From the IMG/VR virus record IMGVR_UViG_3300005353_000006: a DNA stretch of 21,368 nt; one strand, given 5' to 3'. Positions 1 through 21,368 of the stretch are shown here, piece after piece. Within the stretch, counting starts at the first letter, position 1. Each line of letters starts with the position of its first letter. A program made the translations under genes and the position numbers. The notes under the pieces were generated by a model. The model saw nothing but the letters and a program-made list of their open reading frames with translations, was not told the DNA's origin and ran no database searches. This DNA is from a virus.

Positions 1-60
1 GCCTTCAGCGACGACGCCACCGAGAAGCTGGGCGACGCCACCGAGCGCGAGACCAACGAG
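1..60. repeat. Terminal direct repeat, copy 1 (identical to 21309-21368); circular-closure overlap
   Basis: Read directly: gccttcagcgacgacgccaccgagaagctgggcgacgccaccgagcgcgagaccaacgag occurs at both ends. Confidence 0.97.
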
Positions 61-2364: not shown

Positions 2365-3252
2365 CTAGCGCCCGGCCTCCTCGGCCAGCACCTTGGCGAC
2401 CGTCGGGTGGGTGCACCCGGCGAGCACCGCGATCGCGCGGTGCGACAGCCCGGCGGCGGCCGCGTCCACGATCGCCTGGCGCCAGGCGCGATCGGCCGTC
2501 ACCTTGGCGGCGGCGACCGCCACCAGCGTGGCGCCGATCGCGTCCTGCCGCTCGGCGCGGTCGGCGGCGGCGGCCTGGCCCGCGGTCTCGGCGACCTGCG
2601 CCAGCTCGGGCGCGGCGGCCGCGACCTCGGCCAGCGTGGCGGCCTCGTTGGCCTCCACCTGGGCGACCAGCTCAGGGTCGATCTCGCGCAGGTTCTCGCG
2701 GGTCGGGGCGGCCTGCAGCTTGCCCATGGTGACCTCCTCGGTGACGGGCTGGGCCTTGGCAAGGATCTTGCCGTAGCGGGTGCGGGCCTTGGCCAGCTTG
2801 GCCAGCGTCTCGGCGTGGCGCCGCTCGGCCCAGGCGATCGTCTCGGCGTAGTCCTCGGCGCGATCCGGGTACTGCTCGGTGTACGCGCCGTACACCTTGC
2901 GGGTGCTGGCCAGCTGCTCGTTGGCGGCCTGCACCCCGCGGCCGTCCTCGGCCACGTACGCCACCGCGATCTCGGCGGCCTCGGCCTCGGTCAGGATCAC
3001 AAAGCCACGCTTGAGCTGGCGGGTGGTGGTCGCGAAGGGCATGTGGGCGGCCGCGAACTTGGGCGGGTAGGCGACGCCGTAGCCGCTCATGCTGCCGTCG
3101 GTGCCGATGATCTCGCGGCCGACCCGGTAGGTGCCGGGCACGTCCTTGGCCTGGTGCAGGCCGCGCGCCTCGCGGGCGGCGGCGATCACGGCGGCGGCGG
3201 CGCCGCGGACGTGGGCCTTGCGGCCGGTGGTGGTGTTCGTGTCGGTGTTCAT
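2365..3252 (-). CDS. Orphan 295-aa protein with C-terminal HTH-like motif (cassette A); candidate DNA-binding regulator
   Basis: Minus-strand ORF with high GC3. ATG at 3252 lies 7 nt downstream of a -10 hexamer. C-terminus AIVDAAAAGLSHRAIAVLAGCTHPTVAKVL fits a resolvase/sigma-r4-style HTH pattern. The N-terminal domain is not recognised. Confidence 0.8.
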   Translation of the reverse strand: MNTDTNTTTGRKAHVRGAAAAVIAAAREARGLHQAKDVPGTYRVGREIIGTDGSMSGYGVAYPPKFAAAHMPFATTTRQLKRGFVILTEAEAAEIAVAYVAEDGRGVQAANEQLASTRKVYGAYTEQYPDRAEDYAETIAWAERRHAETLAKLAKARTRYGKILAKAQPVTEEVTMGKLQAAPTRENLREIDPELVAQVEANEAATLAEVAAAAPELAQVAETAGQAAAADRAERQDAIGATLVAVAAAKVTADRAWRQAIVDAAAAGLSHRAIAVLAGCTHPTVAKVLAEEAGR

Positions 3253-3259
3253 GGAAACA

Positions 3260-3288
3260 AGCTTACCATGGATCCTGGGGGATGGCAA
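3260..3288 (-). promoter_or_regulatory. Putative promoter P_A driving a leaderless transcript of cassette A
   Basis: Minus strand reads TTGCCA-17 nt-(TGG)TAAGCT-7 nt-ATG. -35 at 3283-3288, -10 at 3260-3265, with an extended -10 TGn. Confidence 0.6.
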
Positions 3289-3299
3289 GCGACTTTCCA
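3283..3299. promoter_or_regulatory. 17-bp imperfect palindrome O1, TGGCAAG-CGA-CTTTCCA, overlapping the -35 of P_A (putative operator)
   Basis: Half-sites TGGCAAG and TGGAAAG. An identical copy lies at 3658-3674 and a one-mismatch copy at 19405-19421. Confidence 0.6.
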
Positions 3300-3309
3300 C
3301 CCAGGACGA

Positions 3310-3337
3310 GAACGGGCGCCCCGTGGGGCGCCCGTTC
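3310..3337 (-). terminator. Perfect GC-rich hairpin T_B downstream of cassette B, abutting P_A
   Basis: GAACGGGCGCCC(c-gt-g)GGGCGCCCGTTC, with 12-13 bp arms. Preceded on the + strand by ccaggacga, as for T_A. Confidence 0.6.
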
Positions 3338-3360
3338 GATCGGGTGGGTGGCGGCCGGGC

Positions 3361-3627
3361 CTAGCGGCCGCCGCGCAGCTGGCGGGCGGTGACCTCCCCA
3401 GCGCGCTCCAGGGCGCACCGGAGATCGTCGCGGTCAGCGTTCCCGTTGGCGATGTCCTCCACCAGGCCGGTGAGGCCGACGCCGTTCAGCTGCTCGGAGT
3501 AGTGGCTGGCGAGCTGGTAGGCGTCGTCGCCCAGGTTGGCCACGATCCAGCCGGGGCGCTTGCCCGCGTCCAGCAGGTCGATCGCGGTGCGGAGGTGCAG
3601 GTTGGTGGCGCGCGTGTCGGTGTTCAT
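3361..3627 (-). CDS. Orphan 88-aa protein (cassette B) with N-terminal HTH-like pattern
   Basis: Minus-strand ORF. ATG at 3627 lies 7 nt downstream of a -10 hexamer. Shares its first five codons (MNTDT) with cassette A. AIDLLDAGKRPGWIVANLGDDAYQLASHY fits a helix-turn-helix pattern. Confidence 0.75.
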   Translation of the reverse strand: MNTDTRATNLHLRTAIDLLDAGKRPGWIVANLGDDAYQLASHYSEQLNGVGLTGLVEDIANGNADRDDLRCALERAGEVTARQLRGGR

Positions 3628-3634
3628 GGAAAGA

Positions 3635-3663
3635 ACCTTACCACAGGATCCGGGGGATGGCAA
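3635..3663 (-). promoter_or_regulatory. Putative promoter P_B driving a leaderless transcript of cassette B
   Basis: Minus strand reads TTGCCA-17 nt-(TGG)TAAGGT-7 nt-ATG. Confidence 0.6.
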
Positions 3664-3674
3664 GCGACTTTCCA
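3658..3674. promoter_or_regulatory. 17-bp palindrome O2 (identical to O1) overlapping the -35 of P_B
   Basis: TGGCAAGCGACTTTCCA read directly. Confidence 0.6.
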
Positions 3675-3683
3675 CGCCGGCCG

Positions 3684-5601: not shown

Positions 5602-6279
5602 GTGATCACACCTGCACAGACCGACGTGGCCCTGAACCTGGAGGCGGCGGCGCTGCTGGTGGAGGCGGAGCCGGGCCTGAACGTGCTGGACGCGCTCCAC
5701 CGCACGTCCCAGCCGATCCAGCCGCAGGCCGCCCGCGACCAGCTGGTGGCCGACACCTACTACGCGCTGCTGGCGTACCTGCCGCCGCACGTGGAGTGGA
5801 TCGGCGCCTGGAGTGACGCCGAGACCGCCGACCGAGTGGCGACCAAGCTACGGCAGCTGGCGCGCACGATCCGCAAGGGCGGGTTCGCCCACGTGGACGG
5901 CGCGGTGCCGCCACTAGCAGACCCGTCGGACGTTGCGCTGACCAGCCGCGCCGCGACCGGCAACCGGCGCGGCGGGGTGCCGGGCAAGCGCAACTTCACG
6001 CCCGAGGGCAAGCTGCGGCTGCAGCGCGCGACCGCCCAGCGATGGCTCGGCGTCCAGCAGCGCAAGCCGCACCCGGACGCGCACAAGCTGACCGAGCTGG
6101 AGCTGCGGATCGCCGAGATCGACCGGCAGCTGGCCGAGCTGGAGGGCGAGGAGGAGGAGGGCGAGCGCGAGCTGGTGGCCGCGGGCAACGGCCACCGCGA
6201 CAGCGAGGCGCTGGCCCTGATCGAACAGTCCCAGCGGTTCCCGCTGGAGCGCCGCCCCACCACGCTGTCGGGCCTGTAG
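5602..6279 (+). CDS. Orphan 225-aa protein inserted between protease and capsid genes (sense-strand moron candidate)
   Basis: GTG 5602 lies 5 nt after GAGGAGG. High GC3. C-terminal coiled-coil/acidic stretch LELRIAEIDRQLAELEGEEEEGE. No family recognised. Confidence 0.8.
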   Translation: MITPAQTDVALNLEAAALLVEAEPGLNVLDALHRTSQPIQPQAARDQLVADTYYALLAYLPPHVEWIGAWSDAETADRVATKLRQLARTIRKGGFAHVDGAVPPLADPSDVALTSRAATGNRRGGVPGKRNFTPEGKLRLQRATAQRWLGVQQRKPHPDAHKLTELELRIAEIDRQLAELEGEEEEGERELVAAGNGHRDSEALALIEQSQRFPLERRPTTLSGL

Positions 6280-10104: not shown

Positions 10105-11871
10105 GTGGCGGGTGGCGCCAGCGTCGTAGTCCGGTTCCTGGCCAACACCACCGACCTGGCCAAGGGCGCCAAGGACGTGGAGGCGCACGGCAGCCGCATG
10201 GGATCGGCCTTCAAGTCGATGGGCAAGGCCGCCGCGCTGGGCGCCGGAGCGGCCGGGATCGGCGCCGTCGTCGCCACCCTGAAGGTCGGCATTGACGAGT
10301 ACCAGGAAGCCTCCCAGGTGGCCGCGCAGACCAACGCCGTGATCAAGTCCACCGGCCAGGTGGCGGGCGTCTCGGCCGACCACGTGGGCGACCTCGCCGA
10401 GTCGCTGATGCGCAAGTCCGGGATCGACGACGAGGCGATCGCCTCGGGCGAGAACCTGCTGCTGCAGTTCACCAAGATCCGCAACGAGGCGGGCGCGGGC
10501 AACGACGTGTTCGATCGCACCACCAAGGCCATGACCGACATGGCCGCGCGCATGGGCACCGACCCGGCCGCCGCCGCCAAGGTGCTGGGCAAGGCCCTGA
10601 ACGATCCCGCCAAGGGCCTGACCAAGCTGGCCAAGCTGGGCGTGACGTTCACCGACGCCCAGCAGAAGCAGGTGAAGGCCATGACCGAGGCGGGCGACGT
10701 GGCGGGCGCGCAGAAGATCATCCTCGGCGAGGTGGAGAAGCGATACGGCGGCGCCGCCGAGGCCGCTGGTAAGACGCTTCCCGGGATGATCAACATTGCC
10801 AAGCAGTCGTTCAACAACCTGGCGGGCGAGCTGGTCGCCAAGATGATCCCGGCGCTGCTGGCGGTGGTCTCGTTCATCCGCGAACACTGGCCCGAGATCT
10901 CGCTGGTGATCGCCAAGGTGACCGCGACGGTCAAGCCGCTGCTGGTCGCGCTGGCGCAGCTGTTCCTGGAGATCGTGGACGTGATCGTCTCCGCCTGGCC
11001 GTCGATCCGGCCGGTGATCCTGGCGATCCTCCCGGCCCTGCAGGCCGCCGTCGCGGTGATCACCAACGTGGTGAAGCTGGTCACCGCGCTGCTGCGCGGC
11101 GACTGGAGCGCCGCCTGGACGGCGGCCAAGGCCATCGTGCTGAACATCGTCAAGCTGATCACCGCGCTGCTGCGGTTCGAAGTCACGATCTGGAAGACCG
11201 TCCTGAGCGCCGCCTGGACAGCGATCAAGGCCGCCACCAGCGCCGCCTGGAACGCGATCAAGGCGGCCGTCTCCAGCGCCGTCACCGCGATCGGCGGCGC
11301 GCTCGGTCAGATCCCCGCCAAGATCTCCAGCCTGGTGCACAGCGTCGCGACGCAGGCGGGCAAGCTGGGCAGCGCGATCAAGGACGGGATCGTGGACGGC
11401 GCCAAGGACGCGCTGCGCGCCGTCGGCGACGCGATCGGTGCGATCCCGGGCAAGATCTCCAGCCTGGTGCACGCCGTTGGCCGCGAGGCGGGCCGCGTCG
11501 CCAGCGCGATCAAGGATCCGATCAACGCGGTGATCCGGGCCTGGAACGGGATCGTCTTTCACGTGCCCAAGTTCACCGTCGGCGGCGGCTCGCACCTGGG
11601 CGTCGATATCCCCAAGTTCACGTTCGGCGGCCAGTCGATCGACTTCCCGAACCTGCCGACGCTGGCCCGCGGCGGGGTGCTGACCCGGCCCACGCTGTTC
11701 GTGGGCGGCGAGGCCGGGCGCGAGATCGTGGCGCCCGAGTCGCTGCTGCGGCAGCTGCTGCGCGAGGAGCACGGCGCCACCTACCAGCTGTTCCTGCAGC
11801 CGCGCACCGCCGACGCCCAGGACGTGGCGTACGCGTTCCGGCGGCTGGAGCTGCTGAGGACGGGCCGCTAG
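10105..11871 (+). CDS. Tape measure protein
   Basis: 588 aa, Ala/Gly/Lys-rich and helical with hydrophobic central segments. Lies directly before the Dit-like gene. Confidence 0.9.
   Translation: MAGGASVVVRFLANTTDLAKGAKDVEAHGSRMGSAFKSMGKAAALGAGAAGIGAVVATLKVGIDEYQEASQVAAQTNAVIKSTGQVAGVSADHVGDLAESLMRKSGIDDEAIASGENLLLQFTKIRNEAGAGNDVFDRTTKAMTDMAARMGTDPAAAAKVLGKALNDPAKGLTKLAKLGVTFTDAQQKQVKAMTEAGDVAGAQKIILGEVEKRYGGAAEAAGKTLPGMINIAKQSFNNLAGELVAKMIPALLAVVSFIREHWPEISLVIAKVTATVKPLLVALAQLFLEIVDVIVSAWPSIRPVILAILPALQAAVAVITNVVKLVTALLRGDWSAAWTAAKAIVLNIVKLITALLRFEVTIWKTVLSAAWTAIKAATSAAWNAIKAAVSSAVTAIGGALGQIPAKISSLVHSVATQAGKLGSAIKDGIVDGAKDALRAVGDAIGAIPGKISSLVHAVGREAGRVASAIKDPINAVIRAWNGIVFHVPKFTVGGGSHLGVDIPKFTFGGQSIDFPNLPTLARGGVLTRPTLFVGGEAGREIVAPESLLRQLLREEHGATYQLFLQPRTADAQDVAYAFRRLELLRTGR
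11320..11517 (+). repeat. In-frame 132-nt (44-aa) tandem duplication inside the tape measure gene
   Basis: Exact 21-mer aagatctccagcctggtgcac at 11320 and 11452. agcgcgatcaagga occurs at about 11371 and 11504. Confidence 0.85.
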
Positions 11872-15006: not shown

Positions 15007-15092
15007 ACCACCCTGGCGCAGTGGTGCGCGCACCCCGACGGGTGGGTGGTAGCCGCCACTGGACGGCTGGTGGAGCGGTCAACTAGATTGTG

Positions 15093-15129
15093 GGCCTGCT
15101 TCCAGGCCATCGGGGGCCGGTACGGCCCC
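15093..15129 (+). terminator. Two tandem perfect hairpins downstream of the late gene block
   Basis: GGCCTG-cttc-CAGGCC (15093-15108) and GGGGCCG-gta-CGGCCCC (15113-15129). Confidence 0.45.
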
Positions 15130-15310
15130 GTCTACGGCGGTGGCCTGGTCGGCGGAGGACAGCAGCGGGCGAGCCGGGCGCGGCACCCCGCCGTCGGTCT
15201 GAACCGGGCCGTTCGGAGGGGACGACCCTGACCTGCTAGGGGGGCGTCCCATGCCACGCATTCGCCGCAAATTGCGACACTTACGTGAGATCCGCAGACC
15301 CGCGCCAACG

Positions 15311-15350
15311 AGCGCGGGGAGGCGCGGGGATCCGCGGGGAGGCGCGGGCA
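15311..15350. repeat. Four tandem 10-bp repeats with core CGCGGG
   Basis: agcgcgggga / ggcgcgggga / tccgcgggga / ggcgcgggca. Equivalently, the 16-mer cgcggggaggcgcggg occurs at 15313 and 15333. Confidence 0.85.
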
Positions 15351-15408
15351 TGCGCAGCGGTCGCGCAGACCGCCGCAGGCTGTCGCACCTACGCGCAGGT
15401 TGGCCCGG

Positions 15409-15437
15409 TTGGCGGGCCGATCGTGCGGCGCTAGGTT
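15409..15437 (+). promoter_or_regulatory. Putative xis/int promoter
   Basis: TTGGCG-17 nt-TAGGTT, then 7 nt to ATG 15445. Those 7 nt also contain GGAGG, so a conventional leader is equally possible. Confidence 0.4.
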
Positions 15438-15444
15438 CGGAGGC

Positions 15445-15669
15445 ATGGCTGTGAGCGAGCACGAGCACCTGACCGAGACGGGCGACGAGCTGATCTCGTT
15501 CGCCGAGGCCGGGCGCCGGATCCCCAAGCGGAACGGCGCGCCGCGATCCGAGCGCACGATGCAGGACTGGGGCGCCCGCGGGCTGCTGCCCGTGGTCGCG
15601 GTCTCGGCCCACGTGCGGTGGGTGAACTGGTCGGAGTACCTGCGGCGTCTCCACCACAGCACCCGCTAG
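15445..15669 (+). CDS. xis: Excisionase-type (MerR-like) HTH DNA-binding protein
   Basis: 74 aa. LISFAEAGRRIP...TMQDWGARGLLPVV...VRWVNWSEYLRRL. Lies immediately upstream of the integrase. Confidence 0.7.
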   Translation: MAVSEHEHLTETGDELISFAEAGRRIPKRNGAPRSERTMQDWGARGLLPVVAVSAHVRWVNWSEYLRRLHHSTR

Positions 15670-15734: not shown

Positions 15735-16931
15735 GTGACCGACACCACCGCCACCCGCACGTTCGCCCAGCACGTTGACCAGCCCGGCGGCCCCGGCACG
15801 CAGTACCGGGTGCGCCTCCGGTTCCCGGGCATGGCCACGATCTACACCGAGTGGCACAGCGACCTGGACGTGGCCAACGCCCGCGCCTCGGAGCTGCGCG
15901 CGATCCGCAAGCGCGGCGAAGGCCCCAGCGACGGCGCCCGGTTCGTGACCCTCGGCGACATGGCCCGCGAGGTGCTGGCCGCCAAGGGTATCGCCGGGCT
16001 GACCGAGGGCGGCCTGGAGTGGTGGGCGCGGATCCTGCGGCCGCTGATCGACGGGCCGCACGCGGCCACGCCGGTGCACCTGCTGCCCGTCGCCAAGATC
16101 CGCACCGCCCACCTGGAGCGCGCCGCCAAGCATCCCAAGGCCGCCAACGACGAGCGGATCGGCCTGGAGGCCGTGCTGCGCGCCGCGCAGGCCGACGGCG
16201 CCAAGGTGCCGGGCGCGCTGCTGGAGCTGCCGACGCCGGTGTGGGAGACCCGCGAGCGCGTCACGATCCACCGCGACGGCGAGCTGGCCGCGTTCGCGCT
16301 CGGCGCGCCCGACCGCTACGCGCGGCTGGTGCTGCTCCAGGGCATGGTCGGCTGTCGCATCGGCGAGCTGCTGCAGCTGCGCCGCGACTGGATCGACCTG
16401 GCCGAGGGCACCATCACGATCCCGCCCGCCGCGCACAAGTCGGGCAAGCGGATCGGCGCCAAGATCATCCCGCTGCTGCCCGAGGAGATCGCGCTGCTGA
16501 CCGAGCAGCTGGCCACCCTGCGCGTGGCGGGCGCCACGCCCACCTCGCACCTGCCCGGCACCCCGGCCGAGTCGGAGCTGGTGTGGCCGATGCCGGACGG
16601 CTCGGCCTGGCCGATGATCCACGGCCGCGTGGCGCACAGCTACTTCAATCGCCACGTCTGGCAGCCGACGCTGGCCGCCGCCGGGCGCGACGATCTCACC
16701 TCGCACGATCTGCGCGCCACCGCCGTCACGATCATGCGCGACCGCGGGATCTCCGAGGAGACCTGCCAGCTGCGGGTCGGCCACGCCGACGCCAAGCTGA
16801 TCCGCTCGGTCTACGACAAGGGCAGCCGCCTGGCGCGGGCGCAGCGCGAGCTGGTGGCGATCGCGGCGGCAGAGGTGGCGACCGTCACCGACACGATTCC
16901 GGCCGCCACCGCCGAGGAGGCTACCCGATGA
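15735..16931 (+). CDS. int: Tyrosine integrase
   Basis: Catalytic pattern: R in CRIGELLQLR, HDLRATAV (H-x-x-R), VGHAD, and Y in IRSVYDKG. GTG 15735 lies 6 nt after GAGGAG. Alternative start is ATG 15687. Confidence 0.9.
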   Translation: MTDTTATRTFAQHVDQPGGPGTQYRVRLRFPGMATIYTEWHSDLDVANARASELRAIRKRGEGPSDGARFVTLGDMAREVLAAKGIAGLTEGGLEWWARILRPLIDGPHAATPVHLLPVAKIRTAHLERAAKHPKAANDERIGLEAVLRAAQADGAKVPGALLELPTPVWETRERVTIHRDGELAAFALGAPDRYARLVLLQGMVGCRIGELLQLRRDWIDLAEGTITIPPAAHKSGKRIGAKIIPLLPEEIALLTEQLATLRVAGATPTSHLPGTPAESELVWPMPDGSAWPMIHGRVAHSYFNRHVWQPTLAAAGRDDLTSHDLRATAVTIMRDRGISEETCQLRVGHADAKLIRSVYDKGSRLARAQRELVAIAAAEVATVTDTIPAATAEEATR

Positions 16932-17128
16932 CGCGCTCGGCCCTGAGCACCGTCCTGCTCGCCGCCGCCGCCCACGCGGCGGCGGTGGAGCAGCTGGCCG
17001 ACCAGCCGTTCCAGCTGCTGTCCGAACGGGAGGCGCCGGATCGGGTCGCCGCCTGGGTGGCGCGGCAGCGCGAGCTGGCCGCCGAGATCCGGGCCGCGAT
17101 CGCCGAGCTGGCGGAGCACCCGCTGTGA
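16928..17128 (+). CDS. Hypothetical 66-aa protein
   Basis: ATGA overlap with the int stop. High GC3. Confidence 0.7.
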   Translation: MTRSALSTVLLAAAAHAAAVEQLADQPFQLLSEREAPDRVAAWVARQRELAAEIRAAIAELAEHPL

Positions 17129-17137
17129 GCGCGCCCG

Positions 17138-17156
17138 GTGTCAATTCTGTGTCAAC
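17138..17156 (+). repeat. 19-bp direct repeat, copy 1: GTGTCAATTCTGTGTCAAC (two GTGTCA boxes 11 bp apart)
   Basis: 18 of 19 nt match 17345-17363. Confidence 0.9.
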
Positions 17157-17170
17157 CCTGACCGCGGCCA

Positions 17171-17207
17171 ACGGCCCGATCCCTGCAGCCATGCGGGATC
17201 GGGCCGT
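17171..17207. repeat. Perfect 13-bp inverted repeat with an 11-nt loop
   Basis: ACGGCCCGATCCC-tgcagccatgc-GGGATCGGGCCGT. Confidence 0.9.
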
Positions 17208-17209
17208 TC

Positions 17210-17236
17210 CCGTTCCGGTGTCTGACACCGAAACGG
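17210..17236. repeat. 13-1-13 palindrome with one mismatch, centred on GGTGTC-T-GACACC
   Basis: CCGTTCCGGTGTC-t-GACACCGAAACGG. Confidence 0.85.
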
Positions 17237-17315
17237 CCCCGCGCGTGTCTGCGGCCGTCGGCGGGATTCCGCGTAACCATGCGGGTTCGCGTGGTCTAGG
17301 CCGCGTGACCCTGCG

Positions 17316-17654
17316 GTGCCCTGCGGGTGTCTGCGCGGGCCTGCGTGTCAGTTCTGTGTCAACGCGGCGGCCCTGGTGACCCGCGCCGACCGCACCCCGC
17401 CCGCGCCCGCCGGGCGGCTCAGCACCGCCCAGGTCGGCGCCGTGCTGACCGCCCTGGCCCGCGCCGCCAGCACCGCCGACGACCGCGCCGCGGTGGTCGC
17501 GCTGCGTGACTGCCAGCTGTGGCTGAACACCACCACCGCCCTGGCCCGCGCCGCCGAGCGCCGCCAGCTGGTGCGCTGCCCGAGCTGCCGCGAACCGCTG
17601 CCCGAGCTGGGCGAGCTTCACGACCTGCTGCACCGGCTGGCGGTGGAGCTGTGA
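17316..17654 (+). CDS. Hypothetical early protein with possible split zinc-ribbon cysteines
   Basis: Good GC3 from about 17376 onward. CQFC near the N-terminus and CPSC near the C-terminus. Start uncertain (GTG 17316 or GTG 17376). The 5' end overlaps the second 19-bp repeat. Confidence 0.6.
   Translation: MPCGCLRGPACQFCVNAAALVTRADRTPPAPAGRLSTAQVGAVLTALARAASTADDRAAVVALRDCQLWLNTTTALARAAERRQLVRCPSCREPLPELGELHDLLHRLAVEL
17345..17363 (+). repeat. 19-bp direct repeat, copy 2: GTGTCAGTTCTGTGTCAAC
   Basis: See copy 1. The two copies are 207 bp apart. Confidence 0.9.
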
Positions 17655-19403: not shown

Positions 19404-19931
19404 GTGGCAAGCGACCTTCCACCGAGGCCCGCCTGGCGGCGCCGCTGTGCCCTGGCCGCCGTCTCGCCCGGCGCCAAGGCCGTCGTGCTGGCGCTGGACA
19501 CCTACATGGACGCGGCCTGCCGCGCGCAGGTCTCGCGCGGCAGGCTGGCGGCCGATCTCGGCGTGACGGCGCGCACCGCGCTGCGGTGGATTCACGAGCT
19601 GGAGGCGGCCGAGCTGCTGGGCGTCGATCGCACGATCGGGCACCACGTGAACCGCTACCAGGGCCGTCCCTACGGTGACACCCGCGACACCGTGACGGTG
19701 ACACGGGCGTCACGGTCTACGGTGACAGCTGAGACCGCCGACGGTGACAGCTCACGACCACTGACGGTGACACGGGTGTCACCCGAACTAGAAGGTCAGA
19801 AGGACAACGGCGCGGGCGCGCGCGGCGACGGTCAAGCCCGCGGCGAGGGCTACGGCAGCGCCTCGGGCGCGCAGCTCGCGCGGGAGGCGGCGGCGGCAGC
19901 CCGGCGGAGGATCCTGGAGGGCGGCGCGTGA
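19404..19931 (+). CDS. Winged-helix DNA-binding protein, candidate replication initiator (lambda O-like arrangement)
   Basis: KAVVLALDTYMDAACRAQVSRGRLAADLGVTARTALRWIHELEAAELLGV is a typical wHTH pattern. The iteron array lies inside its own coding sequence. Confidence 0.75.
   Translation: MASDLPPRPAWRRRCALAAVSPGAKAVVLALDTYMDAACRAQVSRGRLAADLGVTARTALRWIHELEAAELLGVDRTIGHHVNRYQGRPYGDTRDTVTVTRASRSTVTAETADGDSSRPLTVTRVSPELEGQKDNGAGARGDGQARGEGYGSASGAQLAREAAAAARRRILEGGA
19405..19421. promoter_or_regulatory. 17-bp palindrome O3, TGGCAAG-CGA-CCTTCCA, over the start codon of the initiator-like gene
   Basis: 16 of 17 nt identical to O1/O2. No -10 lies at the position used in P_A/P_B. Confidence 0.55.
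19672..19772 (+). repeat. Five direct iterons ACGGTGACA at spacings of 23, 24, 22 and 23 bp (candidate origin iterons)
   Basis: Copies at 19672, 19695, 19719, 19741 and 19764. Copies 2 and 5 extend to GGTGACACGGGYGTCAC. Confidence 0.85.
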
Positions 19932-21260: not shown

Positions 21261-21368
21261 GTGACCGACCAGGCCGAGGCGCCGGACACCGAGCGCACCG
21301 ATGACGCTGCCTTCAGCGACGACGCCACCGAGAAGCTGGGCGACGCCACCGAGCGCGAGACCAACGAG
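21261..21368 (+). CDS. Hyper-acidic small protein, 5' part (continues at nt 1 across the circular junction)
   Basis: GTG 21261 lies 3 nt after GGAGGAG (21251-21257). In frame with nt 1-177 through the terminal repeat. Confidence 0.7.
   Translation, partial: MTDQAEAPDTERTDDAAFSDDATEKLGDATERETNE
21309..21368. repeat. Terminal direct repeat, copy 2
   Basis: Identical to nt 1-60. Confidence 0.97.

Follow-up and report, generated by a model that had tools for sequence, protein, structure and literature searches.

A repeat-dense non-coding region downstream of a tyrosine integrase gene is the probable attachment site of a very small temperate phage family

What function is served by the 247 bases (positions 17129-17375) that lie between the end of one gene at 17128 and the GTG start codon of the next at 17376 in the window, the 21,368-nucleotide stretch of viral DNA analyzed here (IMG/VR record IMGVR_UViG_3300005353_000006)? 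The initial annotation, made from the letters alone, had proposed three possibilities for this repeat-dense region: a phage attachment site (attP), a second replication origin, or an early control region. Our analyses indicate that the region is probably the attP of a xis-int module. Since no integrated copy of the phage was found, we infer the attP from the anatomy of the region, its linkage to int, covariation among relatives, and analogy with known systems.

The phage genome and the anatomy of the region

The first 60 bases of the window (1-60) recur identically at its end (21309-21368), indicating that it is a complete circular assembly of ~21.3 kb; the contigs of its relatives, which were found in soil metagenomes and in IMG/VR, measure 20.8-22.4 kb, and no close relatives were found among GenBank phages. 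The genome (~73% G+C) encodes a terminase, portal, prohead protease, tape measure, and Dit protein, followed 3' by a tyrosine integrase, a RecT-like protein, an endonuclease, and a replication initiator, with all genes on the plus strand except for one pair at 2365-3675. Taken together, the gene content and the complete circular genome point to a very small temperate siphovirus-like phage. The two minus-strand genes are located between the terminase and portal genes, and one of them encodes a 311-aa protein with a helix-turn-helix at its C terminus that could be a repressor or an inserted element. A separate feature of this genome is a ~95-bp repeat within the tape measure gene (11291-11384 and 11423-11516), which produces cross-matches in BLAST comparisons against the relatives.

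An open reading frame (17125-17379) spans the region, but its G+C content is 0.71, 0.69, and 0.69 at codon positions 1, 2, and 3, respectively, whereas the neighboring genes have values of 0.92-0.97 at position 3. Because its codon-position G+C is flat in comparison, we consider 17129-17375 to be non-coding, as had been annotated. At its outer edges, the region carries a 19-bp direct repeat (GTGTCAATTCTGTGTCAAC at 17138 and GTGTCAGTTCTGTGTCAAC at 17345) that is identical at 18 of 19 positions, with each copy containing two GTGTCA boxes 11 bp apart. The left copy (17138-17156, plus strand) consists of two direct GTGTCAA boxes that we designate a putative P arm, and the right copy (17345-17363, plus strand), a putative P' arm, has two direct GTGTCA boxes oriented like the left pair and stops 13 bp short of the next gene. 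GTGTCT boxes are present at 17218, 17245, and 17327 as originally listed; the box at 17327 already varies among close relatives, and the one at 17245 is not retained beyond them.

Between these arms, two inverted repeats had been described, and both descriptions needed correction. The first is perfect as claimed, although its arms are 14 bp rather than 13 bp long (17170-17183 and 17195-17208), such that it forms a hairpin with a 14-bp stem and an 11-nt loop (hairpin 1, 17170-17208, plus strand) whose pairing is kept in relatives. The second, a 13-1-13 palindrome, is present at 17210-17236, but only 12 of its 13 positions are complementary owing to one C.A mismatch. This 27-bp palindrome, centered on 17223, can also be written in a 10-7-10 arrangement as CCGTTCCGGT-GTCTGAC-ACCGAAACGG, and its conservation makes it the candidate core of the site. 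Between the palindrome and the right arm, four YCTGCG boxes in exact 10-bp phase (17310, 17320, 17330, and 17340; plus strand) occupy 17310-17345 and abut the right arm boxes.

A 13-nt direct repeat, CCATGCGGG(A/T)TCG, was also found where it had been reported, at 17189 and 17277. The first copy, CCATGCGGGATCG (17189-17201, plus strand), holds the heptamer ATGCGGG at 17192-17198; this heptamer lies at -32 from the palindrome center in the window and in L290, L007, L297, and L135, and at +56 in the window, L290, and L007. The second copy, CCATGCGGGTTCG (17277-17289, plus strand), is invariant in the close family. The -32 spacing is held even where hairpin 1 is absent, and the heptamer is inverted in L296. 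The motif may be a site for a further, accessory protein.

These repeats exceed what chance would produce by three measures. When up to two mismatches are allowed, the paired-box pattern occurs at only two places in the genome, 17138 and 17345, compared with 0.22 expected. While GTGTCW is not enriched genome-wide (15 occurrences versus 16.3 expected), 8 of the 15 fall inside the 247-bp region. Lastly, the fold energy of the region differs from that of shuffled sequences with z = -5.2 on the plus strand and -4.5 on the minus strand.

Linkage to the integrase and conservation among relatives

The gene at 15735-16931 (plus strand), whose start codon was inferred from 398-aa homologues, encodes a lambda-type tyrosine integrase with a predicted arm-binding N-terminal domain, as judged from Pfam (PF00589), AlphaFold, and Foldseek. 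Its candidate catalytic residues (R208, K243, H324, R327, H350, and Y360) are invariant in 13 relatives. In the AlphaFold model (pLDDT 87), the N terminus is predicted to form a three-strand sheet and a helix (strands 14-15, 24-28, and 37-41; helix 44-59; pLDDT 88-90), which is the form of arm-binding domains. The best Foldseek matches were the Tn1549 Int and full-length lambda Int, with the alignment to the latter extending over 370-389 columns and apparently including the N-terminal domain.

Directly upstream of int is a gene (15445-15669, plus strand) that appears to encode an excisionase-like protein, or recombination directionality factor (RDF), based on its homology to the pre-int genes of relatives: tblastn matched its product to genes located just upstream of int in L134, L135, L137, L007, and L013 with E values of 1e-5 to 1e-27. 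The pre-int proteins of L134, L135, and L289 match Pfam HTH_17 above the cut-off and those of L137 and L195 match below it, while the window's own protein had no Pfam match. The gap that precedes this gene (15007-15444) contains, in its conserved portion, three exact CGCGGGGA boxes and a variant, CGCGGGCA, arranged in exact 10-bp phase (15313-15352). This box type also occurs upstream of xis in L135 and inside the att regions of L297, L298, and L135, so a single protein may recognize sites in the xis upstream gap as well as in the att region.

Across ~20 relatives, the region is 90-100% conserved, is always accompanied by an excisionase-like gene and a lambda-type tyrosine integrase gene, and is better conserved than the flanking coding DNA in every case. 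In the five closest relatives, ~17135-17375 is near-invariant. This conservation is the strongest evidence that the repeat pattern is real.

The genes on either side behave differently. In the five closest relatives, the small gene just 3' of int (16928-17128, plus strand, GC3 0.96) is swapped for unrelated sequences of differing lengths: L001-L004 carry unrelated sequence in its place, and L007 and L290 carry two other small genes. L134, L135, L195, and L197 do not have this gene, and the gap directly follows int. The position thus looks like a hot spot for cargo genes. On the other side, the downstream gene is replaced in L002, with the similarity breaking at 17380, and in L261 an extra ~170 bp (~1200-1366) separates the right arm boxes from the first early gene. 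Since the neighbors on both sides have been exchanged while the region has stayed constant, we conclude that it is a discrete module that stays with int.

We also read the gap following int in eight more distant lineages (L007, L197, L296, L195, L134, L297, L298, and L135), whose integrases are 44-78% identical to that of the window. Two direct boxes 11 bp apart were found at either end of a 240-280-bp gap in all eight. In total, ten lineages of the same integrase family share this plan, with direct box pairs ~11 bp apart and the pairs separated by 207-240 bp, although the box sequence itself differs by lineage (GTGTCAA, GGGTGCAG, TGGTGCAA, TGGTGTC, TTGKCAC, GAGTGCG, TTGGAGC, TTGGAAC, and GTGGTCC). 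Where the integrase is 44-56% identical, the arm box sequence has changed while the palindrome has been retained. Boxes that vary with the integrase around a constant center are what would be expected of arm-type sites flanking a core that is fixed by an outside partner. Similarly, related mycobacteriophage integrases have a core in common with differing arm sequences, and the attP sites of actinophages and mycobacteriophages contain arm-site pairs as well as a stem-loop between the core and the arm sites (PMC3203893). In L289 and L300, whose integrases are ~35% identical, the GTGGTCC pairs flank not a palindrome but a minus-strand fragment resembling a tRNA 3' end, which was called by eye; ARAGORN and Rfam do not call partial tRNAs.

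In the right half of the gap, each of these lineages has its own set of short boxes repeated with a 10-11-bp phase, as exemplified by CTGCGG at 5789, 5799, 5809, and 5819 in L007. The YCTGCG boxes at 17310-17345 are putative excisionase (RDF) sites; the excisionase of mycobacteriophage L5 likewise uses several tandem sites between the core and one arm pair.

Hairpin 1 is conserved in a different manner. All 14 of its pairs are paired in 9 distinct sequences, with six pairs changed on both sides, and its wobbles (three G.U pairs) occur as such on the plus strand only. This covariation, together with the strand of the wobbles, fits a plus-strand RNA hairpin that ends the int transcript. We therefore suggest that hairpin 1 probably terminates the xis-int transcript or has an architectural role as a palindrome, although a cruciform or a symmetric protein site is also possible. 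If hairpins 1 and 2 were instead parts of a small RNA or leader, this would account for the folding being stronger than in shuffled sequences (z ~ -5) as well as for the six pairs with compensatory changes. We consider such a structured non-coding RNA very unlikely, since the covariation is confined to one hairpin and the proposal would explain hairpin 1 alone; the second palindrome has plus-strand C.A mismatches in the window, L004, L007, and L290; and the direct repeats, 10- and 11-bp phasing, and lineage-specific boxes are features of protein-binding DNA. The region also has no promoter by scan and no Rfam match above noise: in searches of the whole window and of the region at E values up to 10, the top hit scored 21 bits, where the thresholds are 41-123 bits. 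ARAGORN found no tRNA or tmRNA in the window, and a T-loop-like piece noticed by eye on the minus strand (17255-17275) was dropped as it falls in the most variable stretch of the region.

An early control region, the third of the proposed functions, could exist beside an attP. The box pairs and palindrome would then be repressor or Cro-like operators, perhaps with looping, around a promoter for the genes from 17376 onward, and the hairpins would be insulating terminators. The site is indeed placed exactly where the int module gives way to the first early gene, with all of these genes on one strand, hairpin 1 behaves as a plus-strand RNA hairpin, and CGCGGGGA boxes are found both in the L297, L298, and L135 sites and upstream of xis in the window and L135. 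A consensus scan of the region, however, detected neither a sigma-70-type promoter nor an intrinsic terminator, and, by eye, TA occurs just twice in the region and TANNNT is absent from both strands. (A TTGACA that can be read from the boxes on the minus strand was rejected as a promoter element since, by eye, no -10 element lies 16-18 bp away.) Furthermore, the region is linked to int rather than to the early genes, as the L002 swap at 17380 illustrates, and a palindrome that remains constant while the boxes change does not fit a single co-evolving repressor. Early control in place of attachment is thus unlikely.

If the region is an attP, integrated copies might be expected, and we searched for them. 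No attL or attR junction or prophage was found in genome collections, protein collections, or metagenome contigs, which may lack the host, and a peptide-pattern scan of 185,579 species genomes found no relatives of the integrase. The homologues of the integrase form 17 clusters, all metagenomic, on contigs of at most ~26.6 kb. Scanning metagenome contigs for the arm boxes yielded nine family contigs, all nine unintegrated, and the family contigs that were read have a circular-phage arrangement. A contig carrying a more distant integrase (P0016, 38% identical) has host-like flanking genes.

That every contig was found unintegrated would also suit a plasmid-like prophage that does not enter the chromosome, for which the region would be a second origin or a partition or dimer-resolution site. 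The repeated boxes are iteron-like, the phage has its own initiator, and the palindrome, with its 13-bp arms, is reminiscent of lox or dif sites. The initial annotation had listed a second origin among its options, noting that a sequence in the region differs by one base from an iteron core and might be bound by the initiator. The phage's iterons, five copies of ACGGTGACA spaced 22-24 bp apart (19672-19782), are located inside the initiator gene (19404-19931); the last of them forms a palindrome, GTGACACGGGTGTCAC, and the corresponding position in relatives holds iterons of their own, of the GACAC/GTGTC type. This array is likely to be the origin. The true iterons are thus elsewhere and of another sequence than the arm boxes, and those of relatives, including L135 and L007, do not follow the arm boxes as these change, so binding of the initiator to the region, which had been suggested by a one-base resemblance, finds no support in the comparison. 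The region also lacks an A+T-rich stretch (G+C is ~0.70 at all three codon positions), and an excisionase-like gene with arm-type sites typifies integrative rather than simple resolution systems. On these grounds, a second origin is not supported, and this group of explanations is highly improbable.

The palindrome as candidate core and its copies in candidate host genomes

All relatives with integrases 44-100% identical to that of the window have retained the palindrome, GGTGTC(A/T)GACACCGAAACG, though with slight divergence in some, and its distance from the left pair is similar across lineages. It can be read as 10-bp inverted half-sites around a 7-bp GTC(A/T)GAC. From these properties of its sequence we assign it as the putative core, and we lean slightly toward its being the crossover site. 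A near-perfect 27-bp palindrome is unusual as a core, which we counted against the attP reading.

We scanned genomes for GGTGTCWGACACCGAAACG and found 57 places, with exact matches to the phage of 19-27 nt; a uniform-composition estimate puts the chance expectation at ~9. Most of these places are in Gaiellaceae, Thermoleophilia, and unnamed Actinomycetes metagenome-assembled genomes (MAGs), with several per genome, and those examined were intergenic and often doublets. In one MAG, five copies agree with the phage palindrome at 25-26 of its 27 bases. No homologues of window proteins or of the integrase were found near the 57 palindromes (within ~4 kb, in 8-kb pieces). The copies in MAGs suggest that the hosts are Thermoleophilia and that the palindrome is either a multi-copy attB or a sequence bound by a host protein and copied by the phage.

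The genomic element, GGTGTCWGACACC, is itself a multi-copy intergenic palindrome (L138-L194, e.g. L142, L145, L155, L181, L183, L187, and L166) that, in the Gaiellaceae and Thermoleophilia MAGs, often forms doublets or flanks elements of 100-170 bp; arrays of it also occur in Bordetella and Achromobacter. Candidate explanations for this element are a REP-like element, a small mobile element, or a regulator site.

The central base of the phage palindrome is polymorphic. At position 17223, the window, L270, L004, and L267 have T, whereas their nearest relatives L225, L290, L001, and L003 have A; the base has flipped in four sublineages, always from A to T or from T to A, and it is the sole difference between L009 and L011 over 2000 bp. 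A change restricted to A and T is what inverting the center of a palindrome would give. In addition, all four combinations of the flanking markers 17209 and 17306 are present, implying exchange inside the 97-bp interval that holds the palindrome, although ordinary homologous recombination could also have generated these combinations. The flip was considered as an assembly artefact and rejected: the perfectly complementary arms of 7-13 bp are far below assembler k-mer sizes, and the neighboring asymmetric sequence fixes the orientation. The flip could arise through recombination if a palindromic partner were aligned in reverse, which would leave a mismatch at the center of the overlap. Alternatively, the flip could be unrelated to integration and result from hairpin-loop inversion by template switching, a process known from plastid DNA.

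These observations raise the possibility that attB is the multi-copy, REP-like palindrome of Thermoleophilia and Gaiellales (GGTGTCWGACACC, with GAAACG flanks) and that the phage integrates at many sites and in either orientation. Since only the central base pair of the overlap would be asymmetric, integration in either orientation would be possible, and cycles of wrong-way integration would leave a mismatch at the center and flip A and T, such that both states would appear in otherwise identical genomes. We offer this multi-site attB only tentatively, as a doubtful extension of the attP assignment.

Shared plan with other elements and known attachment sites

Viral contigs were scanned for GTGTCA-N5-GTGTCAAC. 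Most matches were due to chance, but ~11 unrelated families with G+C contents of 29%-73% had a second pair 150-300 bp away, and in 7 of the ~11 a tyrosine integrase gene lies beside the pair (by BLAST against the L017 integrase, where detectable). In L017, L038, and L099, GTGTCAA-N4-GTGTCAA pairs surround a tRNA 3' fragment with an integrase gene adjoining. Six metagenome contigs (L210, L214, L242, L246, L265, and L274) carry a complete tRNA gene, a hairpin, and then a box pair 40-70 bp further on, an arrangement that, by its sequence, has the form of an attL junction. Repressor operators, as early control would have them, would not explain box pairs around tRNA cores beside integrases in unrelated elements. 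GTGTCAA-N4-GTGTCAA thus recurs in apparent attP arms or tRNA-side junctions in L017, L038, L099, L123, L210, L214, L242, L246, L265, and L274. The integrases of these elements have very different N-termini (SAM_3, P2, and P4 types), a finding that we counted against the attP model. Our literature search found nothing on GTGTCAA as an arm-type site.

One of the closest known parallels is the annotated attP of coliphage P2 (NC_001895), which is ordered as a terminator, a P arm with two direct TGTGGNCA boxes, the core, Cox sites, and a P' arm with two direct boxes. As in the window, the Int boxes are ~11 bp apart within each arm and in one orientation, the arms are ~180-210 bp apart, the left arm is short and the right arm long, and a hairpin is present at the left edge. 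The P2 box TGTGGNCA is related to GTGTCAA and GTGGTCC, and the Cox sites abut the right-arm Int boxes, the same position that the YCTGCG boxes occupy in the window. The two sites differ in that P2 has an asymmetric core of ~27 bp adjoined by an IHF site, while the window has a near-perfect palindrome and no IHF-like site was seen. Furthermore, P2 int extends into the P' arm and is oriented toward the site, whereas int in the window is upstream with a variable gene in between, and the directionality factor is Cox in P2 but an HTH_17-related protein in the window phage.

Mycobacteriophages L5, Giles, and those of Cluster K (CrimD and Pixie), which like the window phage would be phages of actinobacteria, also have pairs of 11-bp arm-type repeats around a common core. 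Their hosts are known, their cores overlap tRNA or tmRNA genes of those hosts, and their integration is experimentally established, in contrast with the window core, which is not tRNA-like and was identified from sequence alone. The attP of lambda likewise holds arm sites, core, and Xis sites within ~240 bp, but it has five arm sites, IHF and Fis sites, an asymmetric 7-bp overlap, and unrelated boxes. For the core itself, a partial likeness is found in IS1397 and ISKpn1, insertion sequences that target REP palindromes, in that the core candidate of the window phage matches a multi-copy, short intergenic palindrome. These elements rely on transposases rather than phage integrases, however, and no insertion of the window phage into such a palindrome was seen.

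Thus, of the functions originally suggested, an attP with arm-type sites ~207 bp apart is the best supported, with relatives, elements with tRNA cores, and P2 all agreeing with it, even though an integrated copy was not found. In the mechanism that we propose, the N-terminal domain of the integrase would bind the four GTGTCA(A) boxes, two per arm, while its core-binding and catalytic domains would occupy the palindrome's two 10-bp half-sites, and strand exchange would span the 7-bp center, GTC(A/T)GAC. The excisionase-like protein would bend the DNA at the four phased YCTGCG boxes for excision, and hairpin 1 would either halt transcription leaving the int operon or help the left arm to fold. 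The plan of this site is classical; its palindromic, host-repeated, and flipping center is not.

If the site is a plain attP with a single target, it would be an ordinary new member of a well-known class. The heptamer pair GTGTCAA-N4-GTGTCAA could help to locate att sites automatically. If the assignment is correct, it would define the attachment site, integrase, and excisionase of a very small (~21 kb) temperate phage family whose likely hosts, the Thermoleophilia/Gaiellales, are Actinobacteria that abound in soil and for which almost no genetic tools exist. For a lambda-type integrase, a near-perfect palindromic, host-repeated core would be an uncommon target and would provide a testable case of one asymmetric base pair setting the direction of recombination.
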